IMG/VR virus record: IMGVR_UViG_2645727669_000017
Direction: 5' to 3' (one strand)
Length of the DNA: 40,004 nucleotides
Source of the DNA: a virus
Lineage: Duplodnaviria > Heunggongvirae > Uroviricota > Caudoviricetes
Shown: piece after piece, positions 377 through 40,004 of the stretch
Position numbering within the stretch: the first letter of the stretch is position 1
Layout: each line of letters opens with the position of its first letter
Notes under the pieces: model-generated
Told to the model about the DNA's origin: nothing
The model's input: the letters and a program-made list of their open reading frames with translations, nothing else
Database searches by the model: none
Position numbers and translations under genes: made by a program

Positions 377-385
377 AGGTGAGTA

Positions 386-1609: not shown

Positions 1610-1642
1610 TACAGTATGCCCAGCCAGTATGTAATCAAATTT

Positions 1643-1690: not shown

Positions 1691-1780
1691 TGAACGCTAT
1701 ACGATTAACTTTTTGACTGATAGATCAACTGGGTTCAGGATACCACCTGCAATATAAGCAGGTGATGGATAAATATATCA

Positions 1781-3334: not shown

Positions 3335-3385
3335 CTCTGAATAAGCTACATTTAGACATTCATAAAAAACTTTAATACTATGTAC

Positions 3386-3580: not shown

Positions 3581-3755
3581 ACCTGTATATCTTGCGTGAT
3601 GCCCATTTATTTGGGCAGGATTTAATATCAGGATCTGGGAAGTCAGGCCTGTATTTCTGGCCAGTTCTCCTGTTTACGCTGTTCCAGCGAAGAACTGTCG
3701 ATACTGAAACGCCACAGAAATCAGCGACTTGTTTAGTTGTCATTAAGTTGTTCAT
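3561..3755 (-). CDS. xis: Excisionase / AlpA-family HTH DNA-binding protein
   Basis: 64-aa ORF with TTKQVADFCGVSVSTVLRW HTH and a downstream FPDP...KW motif characteristic of AlpA/Xis-type proteins. Confidence 0.5.
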   Translation of the reverse strand: MNNLMTTKQVADFCGVSVSTVLRWNSVNRRTGQKYRPDFPDPDIKSCPNKWASRKIYRFAGVIE

Positions 3756-19842: not shown

Positions 19843-20205
19843 GTGGTTTTTACTGAGCGCGGTGTACACGGTGGAACATATGGCGGGAAGTTTGTTGCTT
19901 ATGATTATGCAGCATGGCTAAACCCCGGATTTAAATATGCAGCCTATAAAGTCCTGGATGACTACTTCACCGGAGAACTTCAGCATCGCAACAGCTTAAG
20001 TGCGCAGCTCAATATGAAGTGTCATGAGTTTGATCAGAAAAAAGATATGGTGAGCTTCTGTGGACAAGGGCTGGCGGCATGGCGCTATACGAAGCCAGTG
20101 TTGGTCGCTGAGATTAACTCCCTGGCTAACCAGCTGCAGATAACGATCCCCGGGCTGTCCGGTATTTGCCGGTATGAAATTACCGGAAGGCGCGGTCGTT
20201 ACTGA
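19843..20205 (+). pseudogene. Remnant carrying only the C-terminal half of a KilA-N domain
   Basis: Begins at GTG with GVHGGTYGGKFVAYDYAAWLNPGFKYAAYKV (C-terminal half of the KilA-N signature); sits directly after the Rz stop in the same frame. Confidence 0.35.
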
Positions 20206-20439
20206 GTAAGAGCAGGCATTACAGCAGCCCTTCACTGAGGGGCTGCGATAATGTGAGGAATAAAAAACCGGCAGGGGAAATCCATTGAAGATTTGCCGGT
20301 GGCAAAAGATGGCCATGCTTTTAACCTTAGTAGCAGAGCTACGGAGTTCAACAACGACCGTCGCCGTTATCTTGCTGAAAGGCGTTTCAATGATTTTCAT
20401 CAATTTATTCATCAGCAATGGTGATAATCACTCTCATTT

Positions 20440-20530
20440 TGGCGGGTCCTTCCGGTGGGGTGGCCTGCCACGGGGCGGGAGCGTTGCGGAAAAAGGCTAG
20501 TTTTTGAAATTTCATCCGTCATCACCACTA
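20440..20530. other. Candidate cos site (cosN/cosB-like) upstream of the terminase genes
   Basis: GGGGCGGGAGCGTTGCGGAAAAAGG...TGAAATTTCATCCGTCAT resembles my recollection of lambda GGGCGGCGACCTCGCGGGTTTTCG...TGAAAATTTTCCGG...CGTCAT; about 130 nt upstream of the small terminase subunit. Confidence 0.4.
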
Positions 20531-20658
20531 CTGTAATGTATTGATATTACGGTGATTTTATTTTTATGGTGTCGATTTTGATTGTTTTTTGTTCACCACT
20601 AACACCGTTTGCCTAAAGTTGTTCGCAAGATGCATGTTTAAAACATTCTGGAGCGGGT

Positions 20659-21153
20659 ATGGATCGAGAGTTAAAAAATCTGACGCTGAATATCAGTCAA
20701 CTGGCGGCACTGTCAGGTGTACATCGCCAGACTGCTGCGGCAAGGCTGCAAAATCTACCCGTTGCAGGGGGGCATGAAAGCAACCTCAAGCTTTATCGGG
20801 TGGTTGATATTGTGTCGGCATTTCTGGCATTACCACCGCCGGTTGCAGAAGGCGAAATGGACGCGCATGAGCGCAAAGCCTGGTATCAGTCTGAACGTGA
20901 GCGTCTTAAGTTCGAACAGGAAACGGCACAACTCATTCCGGCCAGTGATGTCAGACGGGAGTTTGCCATCTGGGCAAAAGCGGTCGTGCAGGTGCTGGAG
21001 ACATTACCGGATATTCTTGAACGTGACTGCGGTCTGCAGCCTGCCGCTGTGAGCCGTGTTCAGTCCATTATTGATGATCTGCGCGATCAGATAGCCCTGC
21101 GGGTGACTGAAGCAGGTGCGGATGATGAGGAGGAATTACAGCAGGAGGAGTAA
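20659..21153 (+). CDS. Terminase small subunit
   Basis: 164-aa ORF with N-terminal winged HTH and acidic C-terminus; directly precedes the large subunit with TAATG overlap. Confidence 0.8.
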   Translation: MDRELKNLTLNISQLAALSGVHRQTAAARLQNLPVAGGHESNLKLYRVVDIVSAFLALPPPVAEGEMDAHERKAWYQSERERLKFEQETAQLIPASDVRREFAIWAKAVVQVLETLPDILERDCGLQPAAVSRVQSIIDDLRDQIALRVTEAGADDEEELQQEE

Positions 21154-23255: not shown

Positions 23256-23464
23256 ACCAGAATGATATCGAAGCCATGATTCAGCGTTATATGGAAGCTG
23301 AAATGGCGGTGCTGGACGGAAAATCCGTCACCTTTAATGGTCAGCAGATGACCATGGAAAACTTATCTGAGATCCGGCAGGGACGGCAGGAGTGGGAGCG
23401 CCGCCTTGCGGCTCTGATTACACGACGACGGGGGCATCCCGGGTACCGGCTGGCGAGGTTCTGA
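23252..23464 (+). CDS. Head-tail joining protein W
   Basis: ~70-aa product with gpW-like C-terminus (RRRGHPGY); ATGA overlap with terminase stop; GGAGG RBS. Confidence 0.7.
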   Translation: MNQNDIEAMIQRYMEAEMAVLDGKSVTFNGQQMTMENLSEIRQGRQEWERRLAALITRRRGHPGYRLARF

Positions 23465-24972
23465 TGGCAATTCTTGATGATGTGATTGGCGTTTTTTCAC
23501 CTGGATGGAAAGCGGCAAGGCTGCGTTCCCGTGCGGTGATCCAGGCTTATGAAGCCGTAAAAACGACGCGGACACACAAAGCCCGACGGGAGAACCGAAC
23601 TGCCGACCAGCTAAGCCAGTACGGGGCCGTGTCGTTACGTGAGCAGGCCCGTTACCTTGATAACAACCACGATCTGGTTATTGGTGTATTTGACAAGCTG
23701 GAAGAACGGGTGGTGGGGAAAAACGGGATTATTGTCGAGCCACATCCGGTATTACGCAATGGGGCCATTGCCCGTGATCTGGCAGCGGAGATTCGCACCC
23801 GATGGAGTGAATGGTCTGTCAGCCCGGAAGTCACCGGGCAGTTTACCCGTCCGATGCTGGAACGTCTGATGCTGCGTACCTGGCTGCGCGATGGTGAGGT
23901 GTTTGCCCAGATGGTTTCCGGGCGCATAAACAGCCTGACGCCTTCTGCCGGTGTTCATTTCTGGCTGGAGGCGCTCGAGCCAGACTTTATTCCCATGACC
24001 AGTGATGAGAGCAACAGGCTGAATCAGGGCGTGTTTGTTGATGACTGGGGGCGTCCCGAAAAATATCTGGTGTATAAAAGCCGTCCCGTATCCGGACGGC
24101 AGATGGAAACCAAAGAAGTGGATGCAGAGCGAATGCTGCATCTTAAATTTGTTCGCCGTCTGCACCAGATGCGCGGGACGTCTTTGTTGTCCGGTGTGCT
24201 GATCCGCCTCAGTGCCCTGAAAGATTATGAAGATTATGAGCTGACTGCAGCAAGGATCGCCGCTGCTCTGGGGATGTACATCCGCAAAGGCGACGGGCAG
24301 AGCTATGAACCGGATGGTAATGGCAGCAAGGATAAGGAACGCGAGCTTACCATTCAGCCAGGCATTATTTACGACGATCTGAAACCCGGCGAAGAAATCG
24401 GAATGGTGAAGTCGGATCGCCCCAATCCTAACCTTGAAACTTTTCGTAATGGTCAGTTGCGTGCCGTGGCGGCGGGCAGTCGTCTGAGTTTTTCCAGTAC
24501 AGCGCGCAACTATAACGGCACTTACAGCGCCCAGCGTCAGGAGCTGGTTGAATCTACTGATGGCTACCTGATCCTGCAGGACTGGTTTATTGGTGCCGTC
24601 ACCCGCCCGATGTATCGTGCCTGGCTGAAACAGGCTGTGGCATCCGGTGTTATCAGGCTACCCCGCGATCTTGACCGTTCTTCACTGTATACCGCGGTGT
24701 ATTCCGGACCAGTGATGCCGTGGATTGACCCTGTTAAGGAGGCTGAGGCCTGGAAAATCCAGATTCGTGGTGGAGCGGCGACAGAATCAGACTGGGTACG
24801 TGCTGGTGGTCGTAATCCGGATGATGTCAAACGTCGGCGCAAGGCCGAAATTGATGAAAACCGCAAGCTGGATCTGGTATTTGATACCGATCCGGCCAGT
24901 GATAAAGGAGGCAGTAGTGCCGCAACGAAACGACAGGAGCCGCAGCACACCGACGACCAGTCCGAAGATTAA
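23464..24972 (+). CDS. Portal protein
   Basis: ~502-aa product starting MAILDDVIG; TGATG overlap with W; position between terminase and protease/capsid. Confidence 0.9.
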   Translation: MAILDDVIGVFSPGWKAARLRSRAVIQAYEAVKTTRTHKARRENRTADQLSQYGAVSLREQARYLDNNHDLVIGVFDKLEERVVGKNGIIVEPHPVLRNGAIARDLAAEIRTRWSEWSVSPEVTGQFTRPMLERLMLRTWLRDGEVFAQMVSGRINSLTPSAGVHFWLEALEPDFIPMTSDESNRLNQGVFVDDWGRPEKYLVYKSRPVSGRQMETKEVDAERMLHLKFVRRLHQMRGTSLLSGVLIRLSALKDYEDYELTAARIAAALGMYIRKGDGQSYEPDGNGSKDKERELTIQPGIIYDDLKPGEEIGMVKSDRPNPNLETFRNGQLRAVAAGSRLSFSSTARNYNGTYSAQRQELVESTDGYLILQDWFIGAVTRPMYRAWLKQAVASGVIRLPRDLDRSSLYTAVYSGPVMPWIDPVKEAEAWKIQIRGGAATESDWVRAGGRNPDDVKRRRKAEIDENRKLDLVFDTDPASDKGGSSAATKRQEPQHTDDQSED

Positions 24973-26944
24973 TTCCTGGTTCAGGATGCAGGCTGGTCAC
25001 CAGAGTGACGCGGATATTTATATTTATGACGAGATTGGTTTCTGGGGTGTTACAGCGAAGCAGTTTATCAGTGATCTGAATGCACTGGGCGATATCACCC
25101 ACATTAATCTCCATATTAATTCACCGGGTGGCGATGTCTTTGAAGGCATCGCCATTTTTAATGCGCTGAAAACACATGGTGCGTCCATTACCGTTTATGT
25201 CGACGGTGTGGCGGCGTCAATGGCGTCGGTCATTGCGATGGTAGGAAACCCGGTCATTATGCCGGAAAACACCTTCATGATGATTCATAAACCATTTGGC
25301 TTTACGGGCGGTGATGCGGAGGACATGCGCACCTATGCCGACCTGCTCGATAAAGTTGAGGCGGTTCTGTTACCCGCTTATGCACAGAAAACCGGGAAAA
25401 CCACCGATGAAATTGCTGCCATGCTGGCGGATGAGACCTGGATGTCCGGTGCCGAATGTCTGGCACATGGATTTGCTGATCAGGTAACGCCAGCCGTTAA
25501 GGCAATGGCATGTATTCAGTCAAAACGTACAGAGGAATTTAAAAAGATGCCGGAATCCATTCGAAACATGATTACTCCGCCACGCAACAGTGCTCCACGC
25601 GTACAGGATAATGAACCTGAAGCCTCCCGGACGCCAGTGCAGGCAGCAGCACCCGTGGTGGATGAAAACAGCATCCGTGCGCAGGTACTGGCAGAGCAAA
25701 AAGCGCGTGTAAACGGTATTAATGATCTGTTTGCCATGTTTGGCGGGCGTTATCAGACGCTGCAGGCTCAGTGTCTTGCCGATCCTGAATGTTCGCTGGA
25801 GCAGGCCCGCGAAAAGCTGTTGAACGAGATGGGGCGCGAGTCCACGCCATCCAATAAAAATACCCCGGCTCATATTTATGCCGGTAACGGTAATTTTGTG
25901 GGGGACGGGATCCGCCAGGCGCTGATGGCGCGTGCCGGATTTGAAAAAACCGAACGTGATAATGTCTACAACGGGATGACCCTGCGTGAATATGCCCGTA
26001 TGTCACTGACTGAACGGGGTATTGGGGTTTCCAGTTATAACCCGATGCAGATGGTCGGTGCGGCGTTCACACACAGTACGTCTGACTTCGGTAATATTCT
26101 GCTGGATGTTGCGAACAAAGCCATTCTGCAGGGCTGGGAAGATGCCCCTGAAACCTATGAACAGTGGACGCGGAAAGGTCAGTTGTCTGATTTTAAAATT
26201 GCCCATCGTGTGGGTATGGGGGGCTTCAGTGCTCTGCGTCAGGTGCGTGAAGGGGCGGAATATAAATACGTCACCACCGGAGATAAACAGGCCACTATTG
26301 CACTGGCGACCTATGGCGAGCTGTTCAGTATCACCCGTCAGGCCATTATCAATGATGATCTGAATATGCTGACCGATGTCCCGATGAAACTGGGCCGTGC
26401 GGCGAAATCCACTATTGCCGATCTGGTTTATGCCATTCTGACGTCTAACCCGAAAATCTCCACAGATAATGTAAGTCTGTTCGATAAAGCGAAACATGCA
26501 AACGTACTGGAGAGCGCTGCAATGGACGTGGCATCGCTGGATAAAGCCCGCCAGTTGATGCGCGTTCAGAAAGAGGGGGAGCGTCATCTGAATATTCGTC
26601 CTGCGTTCGTACTGGTACCGACGGCGATGGAGTCTGTTGCTAACCAGGTCATTCGCTCCTCAAGTGTCAAGGGGGCTGACATTAACGCCGGTATTATTAA
26701 CCCGGTGAAAGATTTTGCGACCGTTATTGCAGAGCCTCGTCTTGATGATAACAGCCAGACCACCTTCTACCTGGCTGCGTCAAAAGGCTCCGATACGATT
26801 GAAGTGGCTTATCTCAACGGTGTGGATACGCCATATATTGATCAGATGGAGGGCTTCAGTGTGGATGGCGTGACAACGAAAGTGCGTATTGACGCCGGTG
26901 TCGCGCCAGTTGATCACCGCGGTCTGGTGAAATGTACGGCGTAA
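24917..26944 (+). CDS. Prohead protease (ClpP/S49-like) fused to major capsid protein
   Basis: Single ORF with N-terminal ClpP-like domain (INSPGGDVFEGIAIFNAL...SMASVIAM), a linker and a C-terminal capsid domain; start taken as GTG 24917 with AAGGAGG RBS (alternative ATG 24986). Confidence 0.85.
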   Translation: MPQRNDRSRSTPTTSPKINSWFRMQAGHQSDADIYIYDEIGFWGVTAKQFISDLNALGDITHINLHINSPGGDVFEGIAIFNALKTHGASITVYVDGVAASMASVIAMVGNPVIMPENTFMMIHKPFGFTGGDAEDMRTYADLLDKVEAVLLPAYAQKTGKTTDEIAAMLADETWMSGAECLAHGFADQVTPAVKAMACIQSKRTEEFKKMPESIRNMITPPRNSAPRVQDNEPEASRTPVQAAAPVVDENSIRAQVLAEQKARVNGINDLFAMFGGRYQTLQAQCLADPECSLEQAREKLLNEMGRESTPSNKNTPAHIYAGNGNFVGDGIRQALMARAGFEKTERDNVYNGMTLREYARMSLTERGIGVSSYNPMQMVGAAFTHSTSDFGNILLDVANKAILQGWEDAPETYEQWTRKGQLSDFKIAHRVGMGGFSALRQVREGAEYKYVTTGDKQATIALATYGELFSITRQAIINDDLNMLTDVPMKLGRAAKSTIADLVYAILTSNPKISTDNVSLFDKAKHANVLESAAMDVASLDKARQLMRVQKEGERHLNIRPAFVLVPTAMESVANQVIRSSSVKGADINAGIINPVKDFATVIAEPRLDDNSQTTFYLAASKGSDTIEVAYLNGVDTPYIDQMEGFSVDGVTTKVRIDAGVAPVDHRGLVKCTA

Positions 26945-26967
26945 ACGTCGCAGACAACAACTCTGAT

Positions 26968-26987
26968 GGCCCGTAAGGGCTTTTTTT
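26968..26987 (+). terminator. Short hairpin plus T7 run after the capsid gene
   Basis: GCCC-GTAA-GGGC followed by TTTTTTT; second hairpin AGCCCC-TGAAC-GGGGCT at 26999-27015. Confidence 0.35.
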
Positions 26988-27030
26988 GTACCTGAAATCA
27001 GCCCCTGAACGGGGCTGTGCGGAGACAGTT

Positions 27031-27354
27031 ATGGCAAAGAATTTTGTAGAAGAAGGAAAAACGGTGGCGATTGTTGCCAGTGCAGCCATCAGCAGCGGAG
27101 ACCTGGTGCAGGTGGGTGATGTTTTTGCGGTGGCGCTGACCGATATTCCACAGGGTGAAACAGGCGACGGCCTGACCGAAGGTGTGTTTATGCTGCCTAA
27201 GCTGAAAACGGATGACATGAAAACGGGTAAGAAGGTTTATCTGAAGTCCGGAAAAGTTCAGCTGACTAACAGCGGCTCTGATCCGCTGGTCGGGGTTGTC
27301 TGGGCAGATGCCGGAACCAGTGCAGAAGAAGTGCCGGTAAAACTCAATGTCTGA
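27031..27354 (+). CDS. Head accessory protein (DUF2190-like; decoration or head-closure candidate)
   Basis: 108-aa product from ATG 27031 with GGAG RBS; positioned between capsid and head-tail joining genes. Confidence 0.45.
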   Translation: MAKNFVEEGKTVAIVASAAISSGDLVQVGDVFAVALTDIPQGETGDGLTEGVFMLPKLKTDDMKTGKKVYLKSGKVQLTNSGSDPLVGVVWADAGTSAEEVPVKLNV

Positions 27355-27622
27355 TCCCTTTTCCCGGCTGGCAGCGCGTATGGATGCGATCACGGTCAGA
27401 AAGATGGGAAAGACAGCCTCGATTAATGATGTCGATATGACTGTGATCCCGGGAGAAACACTGGCAGAGCTGAATGCTCTGTCCGGACCTGCGGTCTCTC
27501 TGGTGGTGTTTTCTTCGGGATACCGCCCACGGCGCGGGGATCGCGTTGTTTATGACGGACAACATTGGACGGTCACACGGCATGAACGCTTTAACGGTAA
27601 GCCAATGATCTTTATTGAGTAA
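27347..27622 (+). CDS. Head-tail joining protein (FII-like)
   Basis: 91-aa ORF with RRGDRVVYDGQHWTV motif resembling the lambda FII C-terminal region; synteny before Z. Confidence 0.5.
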   Translation: MSDPFSRLAARMDAITVRKMGKTASINDVDMTVIPGETLAELNALSGPAVSLVVFSSGYRPRRGDRVVYDGQHWTVTRHERFNGKPMIFIE

Positions 27623-27633
27623 AGAGGTGTGGG

Positions 27634-28212
27634 ATGAAGGGGCTTGAGAATGCCATCCGCAATCTGAACAGCCTTGATACCCGTATGGTGCCACAGGCCA
27701 GCGCATGGGCGATAAACCGTGTGGCACAGAAAGCGGTCTCGGTTGCCACCCGGCAGGTTGCCGGGAATACCGTTGCGGGAGATAACCAAGTGAAAGGGAT
27801 ACCCCTGAAACTGGTACGTCAGCGTGTCCGGGTGTTTAAAGCCAGTCCGTCAGGAAAAATGACGGCCAGGATCCGCGTTAACCGGGGCAATCTGCCTGCC
27901 ATTAAGCTGGGGACCGCCCGGGTCAGTCTGACCCGGCGTGGTGGAAAACTGCAGTACCGTGGCAGCGTGCTGAAGGTGGGTAAATATCTTTTCCGGGATG
28001 CGTTTATTCAGCAACTGGCGAATGGTCGCTGGCATGTGATGCGGCGTATTGATGGCAAAAATCGTTACCCCATTGATGTGGTGAAAATCCCTCTGTCCGG
28101 ACCGCTGACACAGGCATTTGAAGATGCCCGCGACCGCATCATTGCTGCGGAAATGCCGAAACAGCTGGGGTATGCACTGAAACAACAACTGAGGTTATGG
28201 CTGACCCGATGA
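27634..28212 (+). CDS. Z: Minor tail protein Z
   Basis: 192-aa ORF closely matching my recollection of lambda gpZ (INRVA..., RVNRGNLPAIKLG, NGRWHVMRR...NRYPIDVVKIP). Confidence 0.85.
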   Translation: MKGLENAIRNLNSLDTRMVPQASAWAINRVAQKAVSVATRQVAGNTVAGDNQVKGIPLKLVRQRVRVFKASPSGKMTARIRVNRGNLPAIKLGTARVSLTRRGGKLQYRGSVLKVGKYLFRDAFIQQLANGRWHVMRRIDGKNRYPIDVVKIPLSGPLTQAFEDARDRIIAAEMPKQLGYALKQQLRLWLTR

Positions 28213-28610
28213 ACCGACATACACAAATCCGCCAGGTCGTACTGGCACGCCTTCGGGAACAGTGTGGAGACAGCGCCACGTTTTTTGACGGGCTTCCGGC
28301 ATTTGTTGATGCGCAGGAACTGCCTGCCGTGGCGGTGTGGCTGAGTGATGCTCAGTACACCGGAAAAATGACGGATGAAGATGACTGGCAGGCTGTTCTG
28401 CATATTGCTGTCTTCATCCGGGCACAGGCACCGGATTCAGAGCTGGATATGTGGATGGAGAGCACCATTTTCCCGGCTCTGAATGATATACCGGCACTTT
28501 CCGGACTCATCGACACCCTGATCCCTCTCGGTTTTAACTATCAACGTGATAATGAGATGGCCACCTGGGCGATGGCGGAAATCACGTACCAGATCACGTA
28601 CACGAATTAA
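28209..28610 (+). CDS. U: Tail terminator protein U
   Basis: ATGA overlap with Z; product matches lambda gpU pattern (ATFFDG, FPAVAVWLSDAQYTG, PDSELDMWMES, DIPALS). Confidence 0.85.
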   Translation: MNRHTQIRQVVLARLREQCGDSATFFDGLPAFVDAQELPAVAVWLSDAQYTGKMTDEDDWQAVLHIAVFIRAQAPDSELDMWMESTIFPALNDIPALSGLIDTLIPLGFNYQRDNEMATWAMAEITYQITYTN

Positions 28611-28620
28611 GGAGGTGGCA

Positions 28621-29364
28621 ATGACCACACCAAATCCACTGGCAAAAACGAAAGGTGCGGGAACGACGTTCTGGATGTACACCGGCAAGGGCGATGCGTT
28701 TGCGAACCCTTTATCGGACACTGACTGGCTGCGTCTTGCGATGGTGAAGGATCTGCAGCCTGGCGAAATGACCGCTGATGCAGAAGATGACACTTATCTC
28801 GATGATGAAGATGCAGACTGGAAAACGACAACCCAGGGGCAGAAATCCGTCGGTGATACTTCGGCGACGCTGGCCTGGCGTCCGGGTGACAGCGGGCAGA
28901 AAAAACTGGTTCAGTTGTTCGACTCCGGTGAAGTCTGCGCGTTTCGTATCAAATATCCCAACGGTACTGTTGATGTTTTCCGTGGCTGGCTGAGTTCACT
29001 GGGTAAAACCATTGCCTCAAAAGACGTGATGACCCGCACAGTGAAAATCAGCGGTGTGGGGCGTCCGTATCTGGCAGAAGAAGGCACTGAAACCGTGGGC
29101 GTTACCGGGCTGACGGTGGCACCGGCATCTGCCAGTGTAAAAGTGGGAGCAACCACCACGCTGACCTTTACAGTAAAACCTGACGGAGCCAGTGACAAAG
29201 CGATCAGTGTGCATTCGACAGATCCACAGACTGCCACGGTGACCCTGAACGGGCTTGTGGCCACGGTGAAAGGCGTGAAGCAGGGCAGTGTCAGCATTGT
29301 GGGCATGACTTCTGACGGCGATTTTGTGGCAGTGGCTACGGTGGCCGTCAGCGCCGCAGGTTAA
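28621..29364 (+). CDS. V: Major tail protein V with C-terminal Ig-like domain
   Basis: MTTPNPLAKTKGAGTTFWMY...YLDDEDADW...NGTVDVFRGW closely matches lambda gpV as I recall it; AAGGAGGTG RBS. Confidence 0.9.
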   Translation: MTTPNPLAKTKGAGTTFWMYTGKGDAFANPLSDTDWLRLAMVKDLQPGEMTADAEDDTYLDDEDADWKTTTQGQKSVGDTSATLAWRPGDSGQKKLVQLFDSGEVCAFRIKYPNGTVDVFRGWLSSLGKTIASKDVMTRTVKISGVGRPYLAEEGTETVGVTGLTVAPASASVKVGATTTLTFTVKPDGASDKAISVHSTDPQTATVTLNGLVATVKGVKQGSVSIVGMTSDGDFVAVATVAVSAAG

Positions 29365-29384
29365 CAGGACGATACTCATCATTT

Positions 29385-29408
29385 GCCCCGATTATCCGGG
29401 GCTTTTTT
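29385..29408 (+). terminator. Hairpin plus T-run between V and G (partial terminator or attenuator)
   Basis: GCCCCG-ATTATC-CGGGGC followed by TTTTTT, immediately before the G RBS. Confidence 0.4.
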
Positions 29409-29421
29409 GCAGGTGGAGAAC

Positions 29422-29811
29422 ATGATGTTTCTGAAACAGGGCACGTTTAATTATGAAAAGCAGTCCGTGGTGCTCAGTGAGCTGTCCGGGCTGCAGAGAA
29501 TTGAATATCTGGCGTTTGTTCAGCAGCGAACGGCAAAGTTTGATGCCGAAGAGGGAGAACTGCCGGAGGCTGAACGACAGATTGCTTTTCTGCGGATGGG
29601 GATGGATATCAATGCCTGGCTGGTTTCCCGCTCACTGTGGAATGCGGAACAGTCTCAGGATGTTGAGACGCTTTGCGCATCCGTTATTACAACATGGTCG
29701 TATGATGCCCTGGGAGCGGGGGCGGAGATGGTTCTGTCGCTGAGCGGTATGGGAGCCATTGAGAATGCCGGGGATTTGGAGCATGAGGTGCTGACGCCGG
29801 AAAAGTCCTGA
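29422..29811 (+). CDS. G: Tail assembly chaperone G
   Basis: MMFLKQG... matches lambda gpG pattern (VTLSELSALQRIE); stop at 29809-29811. Confidence 0.85.
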   Translation: MMFLKQGTFNYEKQSVVLSELSGLQRIEYLAFVQQRTAKFDAEEGELPEAERQIAFLRMGMDINAWLVSRSLWNAEQSQDVETLCASVITTWSYDALGAGAEMVLSLSGMGAIENAGDLEHEVLTPEKS

Positions 29812-30149
29812 CGCGGGAAATGCAGTTTGTCATGCGGCTTGCCCGGGAGTTCCGGCGGGCAGACTGGCGGCGGATGCTGTCGGAAATGTCGGCCACTGAG
29901 CTTGGTGAGTGGGGCGATTATTTCCGGATGCAGAGCTTCAGTGATGTGTGGATGGATGCGCAGTTTGCCTCGCTGAAGGCATTGATCGTGAGAATGGTGT
30001 CCGGCAGCAGTGATGCTGCGGTGGCTGATTTCAGCCTTTTACCGGAAGAGAACGGGATACCGGAGCGAACGGACGAAGAACTGATGCATCTTGGGGAAGG
30101 TATTTCCGGAGGTGTGCGTTATGGACCAGATAGCCAACCTGGTCATTGA
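29787..30149 (+). CDS. T: T segment of the tail assembly chaperone G-T fusion, reached by a -1 programmed frameshift near the 3' end of G
   Basis: The -1 frame is open from 29787 to 30149 and overlaps the last 8 codons of G; candidate slippery heptamer GGAAAAG at 29799-29805. Confidence 0.7.
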   Translation, partial: GADAGKVLTREMQFVMRLAREFRRADWRRMLSEMSATELGEWGDYFRMQSFSDVWMDAQFASLKALIVRMVSGSSDAAVADFSLLPEENGIPERTDEELMHLGEGISGGVRYGPDSQPGH

Positions 30150-33100
30150 TTTGGGGATTGATGCGGCAGAGTTTAAAAATGAAATTCCCCGTATCAAAAA
30201 CCTTCTGAATGGTGCAGCCAGCGATGCAGAACGGTCTTCTGCCCGTATGCAGCGTTTTATGGAGCGTCAGACTCAGGCCGCCCGGCAGACAATGCAGGCG
30301 GCTTCTTCGGCTGCAACAGCCGCATCCGTCCATGCGCAGACGGTGGAGAAGAGCGCACAGGCTCATGAACGCATGGCCCGCGAGGTGGAGCAAACCCGCC
30401 AGCGTATGGAGGCACTGAGCCAGAAAATGCGCGAGGAACAGGCACAGGCCATGGCTCTGGCGGAGGCTCAGGATAAAGCGGCTGCCGCGTTTTATCGTCA
30501 GATTGACAGTGTGAAACAGGCCAGTGCGGGGTTGCAGGAATTACAGCGTATTCAGCAGCAGATCCGACAGGCCAGAAACAGTGGCGGGATTGGTCAGCAG
30601 GATTATCTGGCGCTGATTTCTGAGGTTACGGCGAAAACCCGTGTTCTTACGCAGGCTGAGGCAGAGGCTACCCGACAGAAAGTGGCGTTTATCCGTCAGC
30701 TTAAAGAGCAGGCAACCCGCCAGAATCTTTCTTCTTCTGAGTTGCTTCGTGCCAGGGCTGCCCAGCTGGGGGTAAGCAGTGCTGCAGAAGTGTATATCCG
30801 CAAAATGGAGCGGGCAGGAAAAGCCACGCATTCGCTGGGTCTGAAAAGTGCAGCGGCCCGCCAGGAGATAGGCGTTCTGATAGGTGAACTGGCCCGCGGC
30901 AATTTAGGGGCGCTGAGGGGATCCGGGATAACGCTGGCTAACCGTGCCGGATGGATAGACACACTGATGTCACCGAAAGGCATGATGCTGGGCGGGGTTA
31001 TTGGCGGTATTACCGCGGCCGTCTATGGTCTGGGTAAAGCCTGGTATGACGGTCAGAAGGAGGGGGAAGAATTTAACCGCCAGCTGTCGCTGACGGGGCA
31101 TTATGCCGGAGTCACTGCCGGGCAGCTGTGGACGCTCAGTCGTGCTATTTCCGGGAATGGTATCACGCAACATGCTGCAGCCGGTGCGCTGGCTCAGGTG
31201 GTGGGGAGTGGTGCATTTCGTGGAAACGATATCGGTATGGTGGCGAGAGCTGCCGCACAGATGGAGCGATCGGTTGGCCAGTCGATCAGCGATACCATAA
31301 ATCAGTTTAAGCGGCTGAAGGATGATCCTGTAAATGCCGCGAAGGCTCTGGACAATGAGCTGCATTTTCTTACTGCCACTCAGCTTGAGCAGATACGCAT
31401 CCTTGGAGAGCAGGGGCGGTCCAGTGATGCGGCACGGATAGCCATGTCTGCACTGGCAGAGGAAACCGGTCGGCGTACTGCGGATATTGATAATAACCTC
31501 AATGCGCTGGGTAGTACGCTGCAAACCTTGTCTGACTGGTGGAAGCAGTTCTGGGATGCGGCCATGAATATTGGTCGTGAAGATTCGCTGGATGCGCAGA
31601 TTGCCACTTTGCAGGAGAAAGTATCGCGGGCGAAAAGACTCCCCTGGACGGCATCATCTTCTCAGGTTGAATACGATCAGCAGCGTCTTAACGAGCTTCA
31701 GGAGAAAAAACGCCAGAAGGATTTGCAGGATGCAAAAGAGCAGGCAGAGCGGAATTATCAGGAGCAACAGAAACGACGTAATGCTGAAAATGCTGCACTG
31801 AACCGGATGAATGAAACGGAAGCAGCACGACATCAGCGTGAAATTGCGCGTATTAATGCCATGCAGTACGCCGACCAGGCTGTCAGGGATGCGGCGATAC
31901 AACGTGAAAATGAACGTTACGAGAAAGCCCTGGCATCCGGTAAGAAAAAAACACGCGAAACCCGTAATGATGAGGCCACCCGGTTATTGCTGCAGTACAG
32001 TCAGCAACAGGCACAGGTGGAAGGACAGATTGCTGCTGCAAGACAGTCAGCAGGCATTGCCACTGAAAAGATGACAGAAGCGCATAAACAGCTTCTGGCT
32101 CTGCAGCAGCGCATCAGCGACCTGGACGGGAAAAAACTGACGGCAGATGAAAAGAGTGTGCTGGCCCGTAAAGATGAACTGATTCAGGCACTGACGCTGC
32201 TGGATGTAAAACAGCAGGAGCTTCAGAAACAGACGGCACTCAACGATCTGAAGAAAAAAACAATTCAGCTGACCAGTCAACTGGCTGAAGAAGAGCGCGC
32301 TCAGCGTCAGCAACATGACCTGGATATCGCCACGGTGGGTATGGGTGATCAGCAGCGGCAGCGATATCAGGTACAACTGAGCCTTCGCCAGAAATACCAG
32401 CAACAGCTGGAGCAGTTGAGGCGGGATAGTGAGCAGAAAGGGACATATAACACGGATGACTACAGAAAGGCCGAGCAGGCGCTGACGGAGAGCCTGAACA
32501 GGCAACTGAATGAGAATCGCCGTTACTGGCAACAGCTTGAAATTGCTCAGGGTAACTGGAAAAACGGTGCCATGCGGGCGTTTCAGAATTTCACGGCAGA
32601 TGCGGATAATGCGGCAGGCACTGCGGAGCAGATGCTTACAGCGGCATTTAATAGTGCAGGTAATGCACTGGCTACATTCTGTACCACCGGAAAACTGAAC
32701 TTCAAATCTTTTACCGCCTCGCTCCTTTCTGATCTGGCAAAAATCATGGCTCAGATGTCCATGATGCAGGCAGTTAAGGGGATTGGTTCGGCGTTTGGCT
32801 GGGGGAGTGCAGCAACTGCCAGTGTGACGCCCAATGCTGATGGTGGTGTTTATCAGTCTGCTGATTTGAGTCGCTACAGTGGCACGGTGGTTAACCGTCC
32901 GACGTTTTTTGCTTTTGCAAAAGGTGCAGGTGTGATGGGGGAAGCTGGGCCTGAAGCCATTCTGCCTCTGCGTCGTGGTGCTGACGGTAAGCTGGGGGTT
33001 GTGGCGGATATTGGTGGTTCAGGTATGGCGATGTTTGCCCCGCAGTACAACATCGAGATCAATAACGATGGCACGAACGGGCAGATAGGTCCGGCTGCCC

Positions 33101-33195
33101 TGAAGGTGGTTTATGACCTCGGGAAAAAAGCAGCAGCGGACTTTATGCAACAGCAGTCCCGTGATGGTGGTCTGTTCTCCGGAGGTGGACGATGA
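30121..33195 (+). CDS. H: Tail tape measure protein H
   Basis: ~1024-aa product; N-terminus MDQIANLVIDLGIDAAEF and C-terminus NNDGTNGQIGPAALKVVYD...RDGGLFSGGGR match lambda gpH as I recall it; GGAGGTG RBS. Confidence 0.9.
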   Translation: MDQIANLVIDLGIDAAEFKNEIPRIKNLLNGAASDAERSSARMQRFMERQTQAARQTMQAASSAATAASVHAQTVEKSAQAHERMAREVEQTRQRMEALSQKMREEQAQAMALAEAQDKAAAAFYRQIDSVKQASAGLQELQRIQQQIRQARNSGGIGQQDYLALISEVTAKTRVLTQAEAEATRQKVAFIRQLKEQATRQNLSSSELLRARAAQLGVSSAAEVYIRKMERAGKATHSLGLKSAAARQEIGVLIGELARGNLGALRGSGITLANRAGWIDTLMSPKGMMLGGVIGGITAAVYGLGKAWYDGQKEGEEFNRQLSLTGHYAGVTAGQLWTLSRAISGNGITQHAAAGALAQVVGSGAFRGNDIGMVARAAAQMERSVGQSISDTINQFKRLKDDPVNAAKALDNELHFLTATQLEQIRILGEQGRSSDAARIAMSALAEETGRRTADIDNNLNALGSTLQTLSDWWKQFWDAAMNIGREDSLDAQIATLQEKVSRAKRLPWTASSSQVEYDQQRLNELQEKKRQKDLQDAKEQAERNYQEQQKRRNAENAALNRMNETEAARHQREIARINAMQYADQAVRDAAIQRENERYEKALASGKKKTRETRNDEATRLLLQYSQQQAQVEGQIAAARQSAGIATEKMTEAHKQLLALQQRISDLDGKKLTADEKSVLARKDELIQALTLLDVKQQELQKQTALNDLKKKTIQLTSQLAEEERAQRQQHDLDIATVGMGDQQRQRYQVQLSLRQKYQQQLEQLRRDSEQKGTYNTDDYRKAEQALTESLNRQLNENRRYWQQLEIAQGNWKNGAMRAFQNFTADADNAAGTAEQMLTAAFNSAGNALATFCTTGKLNFKSFTASLLSDLAKIMAQMSMMQAVKGIGSAFGWGSAATASVTPNADGGVYQSADLSRYSGTVVNRPTFFAFAKGAGVMGEAGPEAILPLRRGADGKLGVVADIGGSGMAMFAPQYNIEINNDGTNGQIGPAALKVVYDLGKKAAADFMQQQSRDGGLFSGGGR

Positions 33196-33521
33196 AAACC
33201 TTCCGCTGGAAAGTGAAACCCGGTATGGATGTGGCTTCGGCCCCTTCCGTAATAAAGGTGCGCTTTGGTGATGGCTATTCTCAGCGTGCGCCTGCCGGGC
33301 TGAACGCTGACCTGAAAACGTACAGCGTGACGCTTTCTGTTCCCCGCGAGGAGGCCACGGCACTGGAATCGTTTCTGGCTGAGCACGGGGGCTGGAAGGC
33401 CTTTCTGTGGACGCCGCCTTATGGCTACCGGCAGATAAAGGTGACCTGCGCAAAATGGTCGTCGCGGGTCAGTGTGTTGCGTGTTGAGTTCAGCGCAGAG
33501 TTTAAACAGGTGGTGAACTGA
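33192..33521 (+). CDS. M: Minor tail protein M
   Basis: 109-aa product nearly identical to lambda gpM as I recall it (MKTFRWKVKPGMDVAS...EFSAEF.QVVN). Confidence 0.9.
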   Translation: MKTFRWKVKPGMDVASAPSVIKVRFGDGYSQRAPAGLNADLKTYSVTLSVPREEATALESFLAEHGGWKAFLWTPPYGYRQIKVTCAKWSSRVSVLRVEFSAEFKQVVN

Positions 33522-34219
33522 TGCAGGATATCCGGCAGGAAACACTGAATGAATGCACCCGTGCGGAGCAGTCGGCCAGCGTGGTGCTCTGGGAAATCGA
33601 TCTGACAGAGGTCGGTGGTGAACGTTATTTTTTCTGTAATGAGCAGAACGAAAAAGGTGAGCCGGTCACCTGGCAGGGGCGGCAGTATCAGGCCTATCCC
33701 ATTCAGGGAAGTGGATTTGAGATGAACGGCAAAGGAGCCAGTGCAAGGCCAACGCTGAAAGTCTCTAATCTGCACGGCATGGTCACCGGGATGGTGGAAG
33801 ACCTGCAGAGTCTGGTCGGAGGAACGGTGGTCAGGCGTAAGGTTTACGCCCGTTTTCTGGATGCGGTGAACTTCGTCAACGGAAATAGCGATGCCGATCC
33901 GGAGCAGGAGGTGATCAGCCGCTGGCGCATCGAGCAGTGCAGCGAACTGAGCGCGGTGAGCGCCTCTTTTGTACTGTCCACGCCGACGGAAACGGATGGC
34001 GCTGTTTTTCCGGGGCGCATCATGCTGGCCAACACCTGTACCTGGACCTATCGCGGTGATGAGTGCGGTTATAGCGGTCCGGCTGTCGCGGATGAATATG
34101 ACCAGCCGACGTCCGATATCACGAAAGATAAATGCAGTAAATGCCTGAGTGGCTGTAAGTTTCGCAATAATGTCGGCAACTTTGGCGGCTTCCTTTCCAT
34201 TAACAAACTTTCGCAGTAA
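33521..34219 (+). CDS. L: Minor tail protein L
   Basis: 232-aa ORF in the lambda position with gpL-like Cys-rich C-terminus. Confidence 0.9.
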   Translation: MQDIRQETLNECTRAEQSASVVLWEIDLTEVGGERYFFCNEQNEKGEPVTWQGRQYQAYPIQGSGFEMNGKGASARPTLKVSNLHGMVTGMVEDLQSLVGGTVVRRKVYARFLDAVNFVNGNSDADPEQEVISRWRIEQCSELSAVSASFVLSTPTETDGAVFPGRIMLANTCTWTYRGDECGYSGPAVADEYDQPTSDITKDKCSKCLSGCKFRNNVGNFGGFLSINKLSQ

Positions 34220-34223
34220 TCCC

Positions 34224-34967
34224 ATGACAGAGACAGAATCAGCGATTCTGGCGCACGCCCGGCGATGTGCGCCAGCGGAGTCGTGCGGCTTCGTGGTGAG
34301 AACGCCGGAGGGGGAAAGATATTTTCCCTGCGTGAATATCTCCGGTGAGCCGGAGGAGTATTTCCGGATGTCGCCGGAGGACTGGCTGCAGGCAGAAATG
34401 CAGGGTGAGATTGTGGCGCTGGTCCACAGTCACCCCGGTGGTCTGCCCTGGCTGAGTGAGGCCGATCGGCGGCTGCAGGTGCAGAGTGATTTGCCGTGGT
34501 GGCTGGTCTGCCGGGGGGCGATTTACAAGTTCCGCTGTGTGCCACATCTTACCGGGCGGCGCTTTGAGCACGGGGTGACGGACTGTTACACGCTGTTCCG
34601 GGATGCTTACCATCTGGCGGGGATTGAGATGCCGGATTTTCATCGCGAGGATGACTGGTGGCGTAACGGTCAGAATCTCTATCTGGATAATCTGGAGGCC
34701 ACAGGGCTGTATCAGGTGCCGTTGTCAGCGGCGCAGCCGGGCGATGTGCTGCTGTGCTGTTTTGGTTCATCGGTGCCGAATCATGCCGCCATTTACTGTG
34801 GTGACGGCGAGCTGCTGCACCATATTCCTGAACAACTGAGCAAACGAGAGAGGTATACCGACAAATGGCAGCGACGCACACACTCCCTCTGGCGTCACCG
34901 GGCATGGCACGCATCTGCCTTTACGGGGATTTACAACGATTTGGTCGCCGCATCGACCTTCGTGTGA
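34224..34967 (+). CDS. K: Tail assembly protein K (JAB/MPN plus NlpC/P60-like domains)
   Basis: MTETESAILAHARRCAPAESCGF...HSHPGG (JAB motif) closely matches lambda gpK as I recall it; internal ATG 34224 just after the L stop. Confidence 0.9.
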   Translation: MTETESAILAHARRCAPAESCGFVVRTPEGERYFPCVNISGEPEEYFRMSPEDWLQAEMQGEIVALVHSHPGGLPWLSEADRRLQVQSDLPWWLVCRGAIYKFRCVPHLTGRRFEHGVTDCYTLFRDAYHLAGIEMPDFHREDDWWRNGQNLYLDNLEATGLYQVPLSAAQPGDVLLCCFGSSVPNHAAIYCGDGELLHHIPEQLSKRERYTDKWQRRTHSLWRHRAWHASAFTGIYNDLVAASTFV

Positions 34968-35506
34968 AAACGGGGGCTGAAGCCATCCGGGCGCTGGCCA
35001 CGCAGCTTCCGGCGTTTCGCCAGAAACTGAATGAGGGCTGGTATCAGGTGCGCATTTCCGGGCGTGATGCAGGCGAAAACGAATTATCTGCCCGTCTTAA
35101 TGAGCCGCTGGCAAATGGTGCCGTGATCCACATCGTACCGCGTCTGGCGGGTGCCAAAAGTGGCGGTATTTTTCAGGCAGTGCTGGGTGCGGCGCTAATT
35201 GCTACGGCAATCTGGATGCCGGGGCTTAGTATTGTTGCAAGTAATCTCATGTTCTCTCTTGGGGCAGGTATGGTTTTAGGCGGTGTTGCGCAGATGCTGG
35301 CACCGAAAGCCAAAACGCCTAAAGTGTCAGCCACTGATAACGGTAAGCAAAATACCTATTTTTCCTCATTGGATAACATGGTTGCCCAGGGCAATGTCCT
35401 GCCTGTTCTGTACGGTGAAATGCGCGTGGGGTCACGTGTGGCATCTCAGGAGATCAGCACGGCAGATGAAGGGGATGGTGGTCAGGTTGTGGTAATTGGG
35501 CGGTAA
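34865..35506 (+). CDS. I: Tail assembly protein I
   Basis: MAATHTLPLASPGMARICLYGDLQRFGRRIDLRV... and C-terminus VVIGR match lambda gpI as I recall it; overlaps the 3' end of K in another frame. Confidence 0.85.
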   Translation: MAATHTLPLASPGMARICLYGDLQRFGRRIDLRVKTGAEAIRALATQLPAFRQKLNEGWYQVRISGRDAGENELSARLNEPLANGAVIHIVPRLAGAKSGGIFQAVLGAALIATAIWMPGLSIVASNLMFSLGAGMVLGGVAQMLAPKAKTPKVSATDNGKQNTYFSSLDNMVAQGNVLPVLYGEMRVGSRVASQEISTADEGDGGQVVVIGR

Positions 35507-35578
35507 TATTATTTACTCATGTTCTAACTGATTTAATATTTATATCGAACACTGATAATTATTCTGTTGGTTAGCTAT

Positions 35579-35917
35579 ATGAACAAAACGATTTTATTCT
35601 GCACGATTATTGCCTTAACAGGATGTAAATCTTTGGATTACGTAAAATCCGGCAAGCCTGTAATGGAAGGTAATTCATTAAAAAATATTGATGAATTGTC
35701 AGGCTGCATATCCAGACAATGGGCTGGTAATGGAACACCTATAACATCCCTTCCTATTGAGAATGGGGTAAGCCTTTTAGTTCCACAGGCTATGGGTGGG
35801 TATGATGTTGTGCTTGATATCAAAAAAGCAGGAAATGGCAGTAGTTTTACTCTTTATGAACGCGTACCAGCATTAACGCCAAAAATTTTTGCTGATAGTG
35901 TTAATGCATGTAAATAA
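35579..35917 (+). CDS. Lipoprotein moron between I and J; candidate superinfection-exclusion or surface factor
   Basis: Lipoprotein signal peptide and lipobox (MNKTILFCTIIALTGC); AT-rich island with its own promoter-like upstream region (35507-35578) and terminator; lambda has no gene at this position. Confidence 0.6.
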   Translation: MNKTILFCTIIALTGCKSLDYVKSGKPVMEGNSLKNIDELSGCISRQWAGNGTPITSLPIENGVSLLVPQAMGGYDVVLDIKKAGNGSSFTLYERVPALTPKIFADSVNACK

Positions 35918-35941
35918 TAGTTAATCCTGCCGTAACTCATG

Positions 35942-35969
35942 AGCCGCCTTTTGGGCGGCTTTGTTGTTT
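35942..35969 (+). terminator. Rho-independent terminator after the lipoprotein moron
   Basis: AGCCGCC-TTTTG-GGCGGCT followed by TTGTTGTTT. Confidence 0.5.
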
Positions 35970-35983
35970 ATGGAGTGTGAGGA

Positions 35984-38146
35984 ATGGGTAAAGGTAGCAG
36001 TAAGGGGCATACCCCGCGCGAAGCGAAGGACAACCTGAAGTCCACGCAGCTGCTGAGTGTGATCGATGCCATCAGCGAAGGGCCGGTTGAAGGTCCGGTG
36101 GATGGATTAAAAAGCGTGCTGCTGAACAGTACGCCGGTGCTGGACAGTGAGGGGAATACCAATATCTCCGGCGTCACGGTGGTGTTCCGGGCAGGTGAGC
36201 AGGAGCAGACACCGCCTGAGGGCTTTGAATCCTCCGGCTCCGAGACGGTGCTGGGTACGGAAGTGAAATATGACACGCCGATCACCCGGACCATCACGTC
36301 GGCAAACATTGACCGTCTGCGTTTTACTTTCGGCGTGCAGGCACTGGTGGAAACCACCTCAAAGGGTGACCGGAATCCGTCGGAAGTCCGCCTGCTGGTT
36401 CAGATACAACGTAACGGTGGCTGGGTGACGGAAAAAGACATCACCATTAAGGGCAAAACCACGTCGCAGTATCTGGCCTCGGTGGTGGTGGATAACCTGC
36501 CGCCGCGCCCGTTCAATATCCGGATGCGCAGGATGACGCCGGACAGCACCACAGACCAGCTGCAGAACAAAACGCTCTGGTCGTCATACACCGAAATCAT
36601 CGATGTGAAACAGTGCTACCCGAACACGGCACTGGTCGGCGTACAGGTGGACTCGGAGCAGTTCGGCAGCCAGCAGGTGAGCCGTAATTATCATCTTCGC
36701 GGGCGCATTCTGCAGGTGCCGTCGAACTATAACCCGCAGACGCGGCAATACAGCGGTATCTGGGACGGAACGTTAAAACCGGCATACAGCAACAACCCGG
36801 CCTGGTGTCTGTGGGATATGCTGACCCATCCGCGCTACGGCATGGGGAAACGTCTTGGTGCGGCGGATGTGGATAAATGGGCGCTGTATGTCATCGGCCA
36901 GTACTGCGACCAGGCAGTGCCGGACGGCTTTGGCGGCACGGAGCCGCGCATCACCTGTAATGCCTACCTGACCACACAGCGCAAGGCGTGGGATGTGCTC
37001 AGTGATTTCTGCTCGGCGATGCGCTGTATGCCGGTATGGAACGGGCAGACGCTGACGTTCGTGCAGGACCGGCCATCGGATAAGGTGTGGACCTATAACC
37101 GCAGTAATGTGGTGATGCCGGATGATGGCGCGCCGTTCCGCTACAGCTTCAGCGCCCTGAAAGACCGCCATAATGCCGTTGAGGTGAACTGGATTGACCC
37201 GAACAACGGCTGGGAGACGGCAACAGAGCTTGTGGAGGACACGCAGGCCATTGCCCGTTACGGTCGTAACGTCACGAAGATGGATGCCTTTGGCTGTACC
37301 AGCCGGGGGCAGGCACACCGCGCCGGGCTGTGGCTGATTAAAACAGAACTGCTGGAAACGCAGACCGTGGACTTCTGCGTGGGCGCAGAAGGGCTTCGCC
37401 ATGTGCCGGGCGATGTCATTGAAATCTGTGATGATGACTATGCCGGTATCAGCACCGGCGGGCGCGTGCTGGCGGTAAACAGCCAGACCCGGACGCTGAC
37501 GCTCGACCGTGAAATCACGCTGCCATCCTCCGGTACCACGCTGATAAGCCTGGTTGACGGAAGTGGCAATCCGGTCAGCGTGGAGGTTCAGTCCGTCACC
37601 GACGGCGTGAAGGTAAAAGTGAGCCGTGTTCCTGACGGCGTTGCTGAATACAGCGTATGGGGGCTGAAGCTGCCGACGTTGCGCCAGCGCCTGTTCCGCT
37701 GCGTGAGTATCCGTGAGAACGACGACGGCACGTACGCCATCACAGCCGTGCAGCATGTCCCGGAAAAAGAGGCCATCGTGGATAACGGGGCGCACTTTGA
37801 CGGCGACCAGAGCGGCACGGTGAATGGTGTCACGCCGCCAGCGGTGCAGCACCTGACCGCAGAAGTCACCGCAGACAGCGGGGAATATCAGGTGCTGGCG
37901 CGATGGGACACACCGAAGGTGGTGAAGGGCGTGAGCTTCATGCTCCGCCTGACCGTAACAGCAGACGACGGCAGTGAGCGGCTGGTCAGCACGGCCCGGA
38001 CGACGGAAACCACATACCGCTTCACGCAACTGGCCCTGGGAAACTACACGCTGACAGTCCGGGCGGCAAATGCCTGGGGGCAGCAGGGCGATCCGGCATC
38101 GGTATCGTTCCGGATTGCCGCACCGGCAGCACCTGTCACGGATTGA
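35984..38146 (+). CDS. J: Tail tip / host specificity protein J, N-terminal ~720 aa, ending prematurely because of a frameshift
   Basis: [26 protein letters not shown]... J-like through ...[10 protein letters not shown], then VTD-stop; lambda J is ~1130 aa in one frame. Confidence 0.85.
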
Positions 38147-39398
38147 ACTGACACCAGGCTATTTTCAGATAACAGCAACCCCGAAACTGGCCGTATATGA
38201 CCCGACGGTACAGTTTGAGTTCTGGTTCTCGGAAAAGCGGATTACCGATATCAGGCAGGTTGAAACCACAGCCCGCTATCTTGGCACGGCGCTGTACTGG
38301 ATAGCCGCCAGTAGCAATATCAAACCGGGCCATGATTATTACTTTTATATCCGCAGCGTGAACACCGTAGGCAAATCGGCATTTGTGGAGGCCGTCGGTC
38401 GGGCGAGCGATGATGCGGAAGGTTACCTGAATTTTTACAAAGGCCAGATAAACAAAACCCATCTCGGCAAGGAACTGCTGGAAAAAGTCGAGCTGACGGA
38501 GGATAACGCCAGCAAACTGGAGGAGTTTTCGAAAGAGTGGAAGGACGCCAACGATAAATGGAATGCCATGTGGGCCGTCAAAATTGAGCAGACCAAAGAC
38601 GGCAAACATTATGTCGCGGGTATTGGCCTCAGCATGGAGGACACGGAGGAAGGCAAACTGAGCCAGTTTCTGGTTGCCGCTAACCGTATCGCATTTATTG
38701 ACCCGGCAAACGGGAATGAAACGCCGATGTTTGTGGCGCAGGGCAACCAGATATTCATGAACGACGTGTTCCTGAAACGCCTGACGGCCCCCACCATTAC
38801 CAGCGGTGGAAATCCACCGGCATTTTCCCTGACACCAGACGGAAAGCTGACCGCTAAAAATGCGGATATCAGTGGCAGAGTGAATGCGAACGCCGGGACG
38901 CTCAACAATGTCACGGTAAATGAAAACTGTACGATTAAGGGCATGCTGGAGGCGACCCAAGTCAGAGGGGACTTCGTTAAAGCTGTATCCAAATCATTTC
39001 CGAAACAGGCTGGTACGTGGGGTAACACGGAAACACCAAACGGGACGGTTACAGTCACCATCAGCGATGATCATAACTTTGACCGTCAAATCATTATTCC
39101 GCCCATTATCTTTAACGGAATAGCGTATAGCTATCCGGGAAGTGGTAATAACCCGGGAGGTAAAAGTTACACGGGTTATGGTTTTGAAGTTCGCAAAAAC
39201 GGTGTATTAATCGCATCCAGAGAAACTAAAGGGGCCATTCCCGGTAGCTACAGTGCGGTTATTGATATGCCGAGTGGCAGGGGAAGCGTCACTCTGGAGT
39301 TTAAGGTTTTCCATAAAGGCAATCAGTGGGCAGGTAATATCACCGACTGTACGGTGATTGTGACCAAAAAAGCCGCTTCCGGCATCAGTATTCGTTGA
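38070..39398 (+). CDS. J: C-terminal receptor-binding portion of J in the +1 frame (J-like sequence begins ~38136)
   Basis: Frame-B ORF reads [31 protein letters not shown]... to the J C-terminus; the upstream part of this ORF overlaps the end of the N-terminal J ORF. Confidence 0.7.
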
Positions 39399-39418
39399 AA
39401 TTGTTATAACCCATATAA

Positions 39419-39444
39419 GGGCACCAAAAATGGTGCCTTTTTTA
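39419..39444 (+). terminator. Rho-independent terminator after J
   Basis: GGCACC-AAAAAT-GGTGCC followed by TTTTTT. Confidence 0.55.
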
Positions 39445-39467
39445 TTGCAGAAAAGCGAGAGGTAATT

Positions 39468-40004
39468 ATGCGTAAAGTTTGTGCAGCAATTTTGTCCGCA
39501 GCCATTTGTCTGGCCGTATCCGGTGCGCCTGCATGGGCGTCTGAACATCAGTCCACACTGAGCGCGGGGTATCTTCATGCCCGGACGAACGCTCCCGGTA
39601 GCGATAATCTTAACGGGATTAACGTGAAATACCGTTATGAATTTACGGACACGCTGGGGCTGGTGACGTCATTCAGCTATGCAGGAGACAAGAATCGCCA
39701 GCTTACCCGTTACAGCGATACCCGCTGGCATGAAGATTCCGTGCGTAACCGCTGGTTCAGCGTAATGGCGGGGCCGTCTGTGCGCGTGAATGAATGGTTC
39801 AGCGCGTATGCGATGGCGGGTGTGGCTTACAGCCGTGTGTCGACTTTCTCCGGGGATTATCTTCGCGTAACTGACAACAAGGGGAAAACGCACGATGTGC
39901 TGACCGGAAGTGATGACGGTCGCCACAGCGACACCTCTCTGGCGTGGGGAGCTGGCGTGCAGTTTAACCCGACCGAATCCGTGGCCATTGATATTGCTTA
40001 TGAA
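39468..40004 (+). CDS. lom: Lom outer-membrane protein (Ail/Lom family), 3' end beyond the window
   Basis: ATG 39468 with GAGAGG RBS; signal peptide [24 protein letters not shown]; GINVKYRYE and later motifs match lambda Lom as I recall it; runs off the window end. Confidence 0.85.

Follow-up and report, generated by a model that had tools for sequence, protein, structure and literature searches.

A single extra base at a mosaic junction splits the lambda-type tail-tip gene J in a prophage sequence

In the stretch of viral DNA analysed here (the window; 40,004 nt, IMG/VR record IMGVR_UViG_2645727669_000017), the tail-tip gene J is divided between two reading frames by one extra T at position 38134. 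The most probable explanation, to which we give a probability of roughly 60%, is that this T is a real and very recent single-base insertion that inactivated J at a recombination junction in an otherwise complete lambda-type prophage. The gene is a lambda-family J that is either in pseudogene form or mis-assembled. A J-defective prophage and an assembly error were the two explanations offered by an earlier reading of the sequence alone, and they remain the only two that are well supported.

One extra base divides J into two reading frames

The N-terminal frame of J (positions 35984-38146, plus strand) is an ORF of 720 aa that is lambda-like as far as ...RIAAPAAP. After 717 J residues, which comprise the hub domains and FNIII-1, it continues with VTD and ends at the premature TGA of the shifted frame (38144-38146, plus strand), the VTD-stop described by the sequence-only reading. 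That reading had also placed the rest of J in the +1 frame, and this proved correct up to position 39398: a second ORF in the next frame (38070-39398; the 427-aa piece) reaches the normal J C-terminus, and the C-terminal continuation of J within it (38136-39398, plus strand) encodes FNIII-2, the helical shaft, the central straight fibre and the receptor-binding domain, as judged from Pfam and from residues 718-1131 of gpJ in the PDB. A lambda-type J is expected to be one uninterrupted ORF of about 1130-1165 aa, whereas the J gene of the window is split at codon 717.

Alignments with the J genes of lambda, of the strains whose complete genomes have the three nearest alleles (numer 3, GPEC60 and 4/1-1), and of SCU-115, A17 and HN257 attributed the break to a single unambiguous extra base, the T at 38134 (plus strand; CACC-T-GTCAC), between C38133 and G38135. 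Pairwise alignment to lambda J, a check suggested by the sequence-only reading, likewise gave exactly one extra base. The site had been located correctly at around 38135 (CCT-G-TCA), but the inserted base is T38134 and not G38135. The claim that no homopolymer is involved also stands, since the neighbours of the T are C and G. When T38134 was deleted in silico, a 3414-nt ORF of 1137 codons with zero internal stops was restored, and its length equals that of the intact J of E. coli strains numer 3 and 4/1-1. The gene therefore has the form of a frameshift pseudogene, in which a single indel is present relative to intact orthologues and its removal restores the ORF. Position 38134 of the window corresponds to JHSM01000025.1 near position 86842, and the junction sequence without the extra T, within 38000-38300, is CACCGTCAC. 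The antisense ORF at 38136-38960 was not regarded as a feature, because every J allele has long antisense ORFs.

The break parts the hub half of J from the fibre half

Pfam searches of the 720-aa piece identified FNIII-A_GpJ (residues 86-207), Phage-tail_3 (330-498) and Ig_J (610-714), and those of the 427-aa piece identified Ig_J_second, Phage_Tail_Tip and Ig_GpJ_C, the C-terminal receptor-binding Ig domain. Thus, all six J-specific Pfam domains occur in the correct order across the two pieces, with scores far above the Pfam cut-offs. The first piece aligned to residues 1-717 of the solved lambda gpJ (PDB 8iyk), and the second aligned to gpJ residues 718-1131 and also to the gpJ713 constructs (PDB 8xcj and 9wca). 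Because both pieces match J domains in order and match gpJ structures, a chance pattern of ORFs was dismissed. In the tail operon, too, the gene stands where J is expected, following K and I and preceding lom.

The domain scheme of lambda gpJ includes a linker between FNIII-1 and FNIII-2 (PMC11101478), and the limits of the Pfam domains together with those of the gpJ alignments place the frameshift in this linker. The break therefore parts the hub half of the protein from the whole fibre and receptor-binding half. The truncation costs more than host recognition, as FNIII-2, the helical shaft, the central straight fibre and the receptor-binding domain are all removed. Translation from the J start would be expected to yield a fragment of ~79 kDa that ends three codons past FNIII-1, while FNIII-2, the shaft, the central straight fibre and the receptor-binding parts would remain untranslated in frame, with no usable start.

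The split allele is found on one contig

Exact look-ups among ~15 billion proteins found the 720-aa and 427-aa pieces each on one contig only, JHSM01000025.1 of the draft assembly GCA_001265975.1. This contig is 88,714 bp long and is identical to the window over the compared stretch 35400-39500. The repaired 1137-aa J had no occurrence in the exact look-up of the same ~15 billion proteins; the protein database search was clustered at 90%, a level at which a near-identical intact allele would be hidden.

At the nucleotide level, in both the phage collection and the complete E. coli genomes, the 1101-nt J query always aligned over 1100 nt, without the extra base, among the matches listed. A query carrying the T on the standard allele had zero exact matches in the 4,447 matched records from 5,426 complete E. 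coli genomes (best match per record), and its best matches covered 92 of 93 nt (98.9%) with the gap at the T. In addition, no junction-spanning pattern, exact or gapped, with or without the T, was present in the GTDB representative genomes, IMG/VR or the JGI metagenome contigs. A recurrent insertion hotspot was rejected on the grounds that the T on the standard background was unmatched exactly in the complete E. coli genomes. Judging from these searches, T38134 is neither a conserved feature nor a recurrent hotspot. J itself is a repeat of which E. coli genomes have a median of 2-3 copies.

A divergent tract begins next to the inserted base

A tract of window-unique and mostly synonymous substitutions with a strong N-to-A bias extends from 38138 to 38900 (plus strand; densest at 38138-38585) and starts 4 nt after T38134. 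In comparison with four references, 10 unique substitutions lie within the 62 nt directly after the T, whereas upstream no unique change lies closer than 85 nt. The stretch 38136-39143 contains 28 substitutions unique to the window, 19 of them at third codon positions of the repaired frame. In that frame 17 of the 28 are synonymous, against 7.2 expected under random placement (P<5e-5). This synonymous excess indicates that the tract is a natural, selection-filtered allele whose frame was intact while it diverged. Sequencing noise was rejected as the source of the tract because of the strong enrichment for synonymous sites in the repaired frame. On the coding strand, the spectrum consists mainly of G>A (11), T>A (7) and C>A (4), so that 22 of the 28 changes are to A and none is to T, an odd directional spectrum.

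No donor of the tract, nor any similar allele, came to light in the complete E. coli genomes, phage records, IMG/VR, GTDB representative genomes or JGI metagenome contigs. The complete E. coli genomes gave a best identity of 95.0%, and phages one of 94.4-94.6%. IMG/VR lacked a tract-specific 25-mer, and an 11-residue tract peptide, when back-translated, was missing from both IMG/VR and the JGI metagenome contigs. A diversity-generating origin of the DGR type was rejected: the window holds neither a second copy of the tract nor a template repeat copy, neither the genes called here nor those annotated in the related HN257 prophage include a reverse transcriptase, and the changes are mostly synonymous and at third positions.

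If the T had been placed independently of the tract, its chance of falling at the left edge would be roughly 90/3414, or about 3%, by a post-hoc estimate. The coincidence points to a common origin of the insertion and the mosaic junction, whether in a recombination event or in a chimeric consensus.

The rest of the prophage looks intact

The window is almost wholly one prophage, with a P4-type integrase gene (386-1609), an early region, lysis genes and a lambda-like late operon. Comparison with E. coli HN257 revealed that the early region contains CPS-53-type genes, namely homologues of yfdN to yfdR. The interval 20000-35989 is collinear with HN257 and differs from it by 75 substitutions of an ordinary, transition-dominated spectrum, with no indel. 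All of the late genes are equal in length to their annotated HN257 counterparts, and the same is true of the comparable early-gene ORFs. Upstream of J, the tail assembly gene I (34865-35506, plus strand) is intact; downstream, a gene for a lom-like outer-membrane protein (Ail_Lom; 39468-40004, plus strand) is truncated where the contig and window end. J is thus the sole visibly broken gene, which makes an indel-prone assembly less likely and implies that the lesion, if real, is recent.

Several other features of the window were noted. JHSM01000025.1 ends inside the lom-like gene about 600 nt past J, as typically happens where a repeat interrupts a short-read assembly. Between I and J lies an ORF of 112 aa (35579-35917, plus strand) with a lipoprotein-like N-terminus (…LTGC…). 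It is conserved at the same spot in related E. coli prophages, where it is annotated as hypothetical, and is absent from lambda; it has no Pfam match, matches only phrog_914 (unknown function) and is a possible moron. Beside the integrase gene, an ORF of 516 aa (1781-3334, minus strand) has no Pfam domain and matches only phrog_13820. The interval 1-3700 of the window is at least 80% covered in only 35 of the 5,426 complete E. coli genomes. The window yielded no tRNA gene.

A real insertion or an assembly error

Several observations favour a real insertion. First, the sequence context is not a homopolymer and hence is not that of the usual platform indel error. Second, the surrounding assembly is clean, with no indel over 16 kb. 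Third, the position of the junction fits recombination between diverged J alleles. Fourth, it is common for J to be a pseudogene and for lambdoid prophages to be defective (GPEC60; PMC2669165). In addition, the substitutions downstream of the break are selection-filtered in the repaired frame, which indicates that the frame was intact until recently. The likeliest origin of T38134, we infer, is a recombination between two J alleles, the base having been inserted at the junction or along with it; the divergent tract would have been imported in this event, with the insertion at its 5' edge.

The main alternative is that J is intact in the genome and that the T is an artefact of the draft, for example a mis-joined or collapsed consensus of two diverged J copies. 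We consider this explanation a serious one that has roughly one chance in three of being correct. The allele comes from a single draft contig, without independent confirmation, and the 420 codons downstream of the break contain no second lesion, as an assembly error would also give. Moreover, the repaired frame is perfect, with purifying selection evident as far as the break. Spontaneous mutations that insert a base different from both of its neighbours are uncommon, and this too counts against a real insertion. J belongs to a repeat family, the contig breaks just after it in lom, and the T coincides with the switch to a divergent allele, where a consensus of mixed reads is least reliable; with a multi-copy J and a contig end nearby, it is conceivable that the consensus is chimeric or collapsed at the margin of a divergent copy. 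However, the non-homopolymer context argues against an error, as do the adjacent 16 kb, which contain no other indel, and the other compared genes, which are all intact. Graph assemblers, furthermore, do not invent bases that are absent from the reads. A consensus artefact in which a SNP (CCG versus CCT) was rendered as an indel was also tested and proved unsupported, as no CCT-TCN allele was found in IMG/VR. No description of the sequencing platform or assembler of JHSM01 was found in the literature.

Quite improbable, in our estimation, is a third scenario, in which a single strand-specific event affecting the receptor-binding half of J left behind both the T and the tract at 38138-38900. 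The event might have been an import from an unsampled phage lineage whose composition is very different, or a patch of error-prone, A-inserting synthesis in the course of recombination. Were this scenario true, the frameshift would be the sign of a mechanism that diversifies tail fibres and not of random decay.

Programmed recoding or a two-gene J, an improbable alternative

The weakest of the explanations is that the split is tolerated or functional, J being completed by +1 ribosomal frameshifting or its halves being made separately and assembling, as in phages with separate hub and fibre proteins. In its favour, the break falls exactly in an inter-domain linker, and a C-terminal construct of gpJ from residue 713 (gpJ713) folds and binds LamB by itself (PDB 8xcj, 9wca; PMC11101478). 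Against it, the T occurs in no relative among the best J matches of the 4,447 matched E. coli records, and the length of the linker is constant among the J homologues examined. A fibre without a covalent link, moreover, has no evident attachment to the hub. The shorter J-like entries in the protein clusters carry the source label 'partial'.

The sequence around the break was also inspected for signals of recoding and reinitiation. No slippery codon that would allow +1 re-pairing was seen in CCU GUC ACG GAU UGA (CCU-G, GAU-UGA-A), and no AGGAGG-like element was seen upstream of the candidate shift codons. No significant local fold was detected (z = -1.15 in the window and -0.58 in the ancestral-type sequence), and a quasi-palindrome or frameshift-stimulating structure was rejected because the folds were non-significant in both. 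The gene thus lacks the conserved site, and the slippery codon with a stimulator or structure, of a prfB-type programmed +1 frameshift. The C-terminal frame is open from 38055, and its only candidate starts are ATG 38070 and TTG 38115, the next start lying >150 nt downstream; a start-codon scan revealed no third start codon before 38300. ATG 38070 has GGGCGG three bases upstream, at poor spacing, and TTG 38115 has no Shine-Dalgarno sequence, so that no start preceded by a Shine-Dalgarno sequence is available to the second half. Naturally split hub and fibre genes would be expected to recur in relatives and to give the second gene a ribosome-binding site and start of its own, and neither property was found here. 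The sequence-only reading had allowed that related phages might encode J as two genes with a functional second start; this possibility failed, since the T is absent from relatives, the linker is constant and no start is credible. Neither programmed recoding nor a naturally two-gene J is thus supported, and we regard a tolerated split as extremely unlikely.

Predicted consequences of the split

In lambda, the parts of gpJ that are lost here are responsible for sealing the tail tip, for receptor binding and for relaying the signal to open (PMC11101478). Because these parts close the tip and bind the receptor, induced particles should be non-infectious unless J is supplied or repaired, that is, unless another lambdoid prophage complements it or recombinationally repairs it (PMC2669165). 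If the T is real, an otherwise complete prophage would be unable on its own to build a working tail tip, and predictions of completeness and host range for the strain should treat the prophage as defective but rescuable. If the T is an artefact, a one-base consensus error in a repeat-family gene would have placed two spurious proteins in public databases. In neither case does the finding change what is known of J or of frameshifting. The case is an ordinary one, of a frameshifted lambda-family J or a one-base error in a draft, and its only mildly unusual element is the unsampled, A-biased tract.

Comparison with known systems

The domain order and synteny (K, I, J, lom) of lambda gpJ (PDB 8iyk, 8xcj) are like those of the J gene in the window, and the DNA identity between the two in the central region is about 94-95%. 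However, lambda J is one ORF of 1132 aa, whereas J in the window is interrupted by one extra T. Once repaired, it is of the 1137-aa type, with a receptor-binding end different from that of lambda, and the 112-aa lipoprotein-like gene that stands between I and J in the window is not present in lambda.

Some public records with J-like sequences were unusual. J-like proteins of 1,300-1,900 aa exist, one of which is assigned to Bacillus thuringiensis Sbt003 with 96% identity, and the record 'Campylobacter phage CJLB-4' showed 94.5% identity to the 1,101-nt central J query, about level with lambda. The oversized proteins and the Sbt003 and CJLB-4 records look like contamination or mis-assemblies in public data.

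The closest counterparts are in E. coli strains numer 3 (WP_110101773.1) and 4/1-1 (WP_124850291.1), which have the same 3414-nt J as the window once the T is removed, the same flanking genes and 97-98% identity to the window over the region from I to lom. The J genes of these strains differ from that of the window in having neither the T nor the divergent tract of 38138-38900.

GPEC60 provides a second damaged example. Its J gene (ACYX3Y_RS09580; NZ_CM142764.1, locus 1585-4997) likewise carries a single-base indel in an otherwise lambda-like late operon and is labelled 'frameshifted' by PGAP. The lesion in GPEC60 is a one-base deletion in a run of G at a different site, equivalent to about 37336 of the window, whereas that in the window is a non-homopolymer insertion at a mosaic junction. 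This separate lesion shows that single-base lesions of J, or errors, have appeared independently within this family of prophages. Defective prophages of the lambdoid type are common, and other prophages can rescue them, as illustrated by the defective pool of O157 Sakai (PMC2669165). Apart from its split J, the prophage in the window looks complete.
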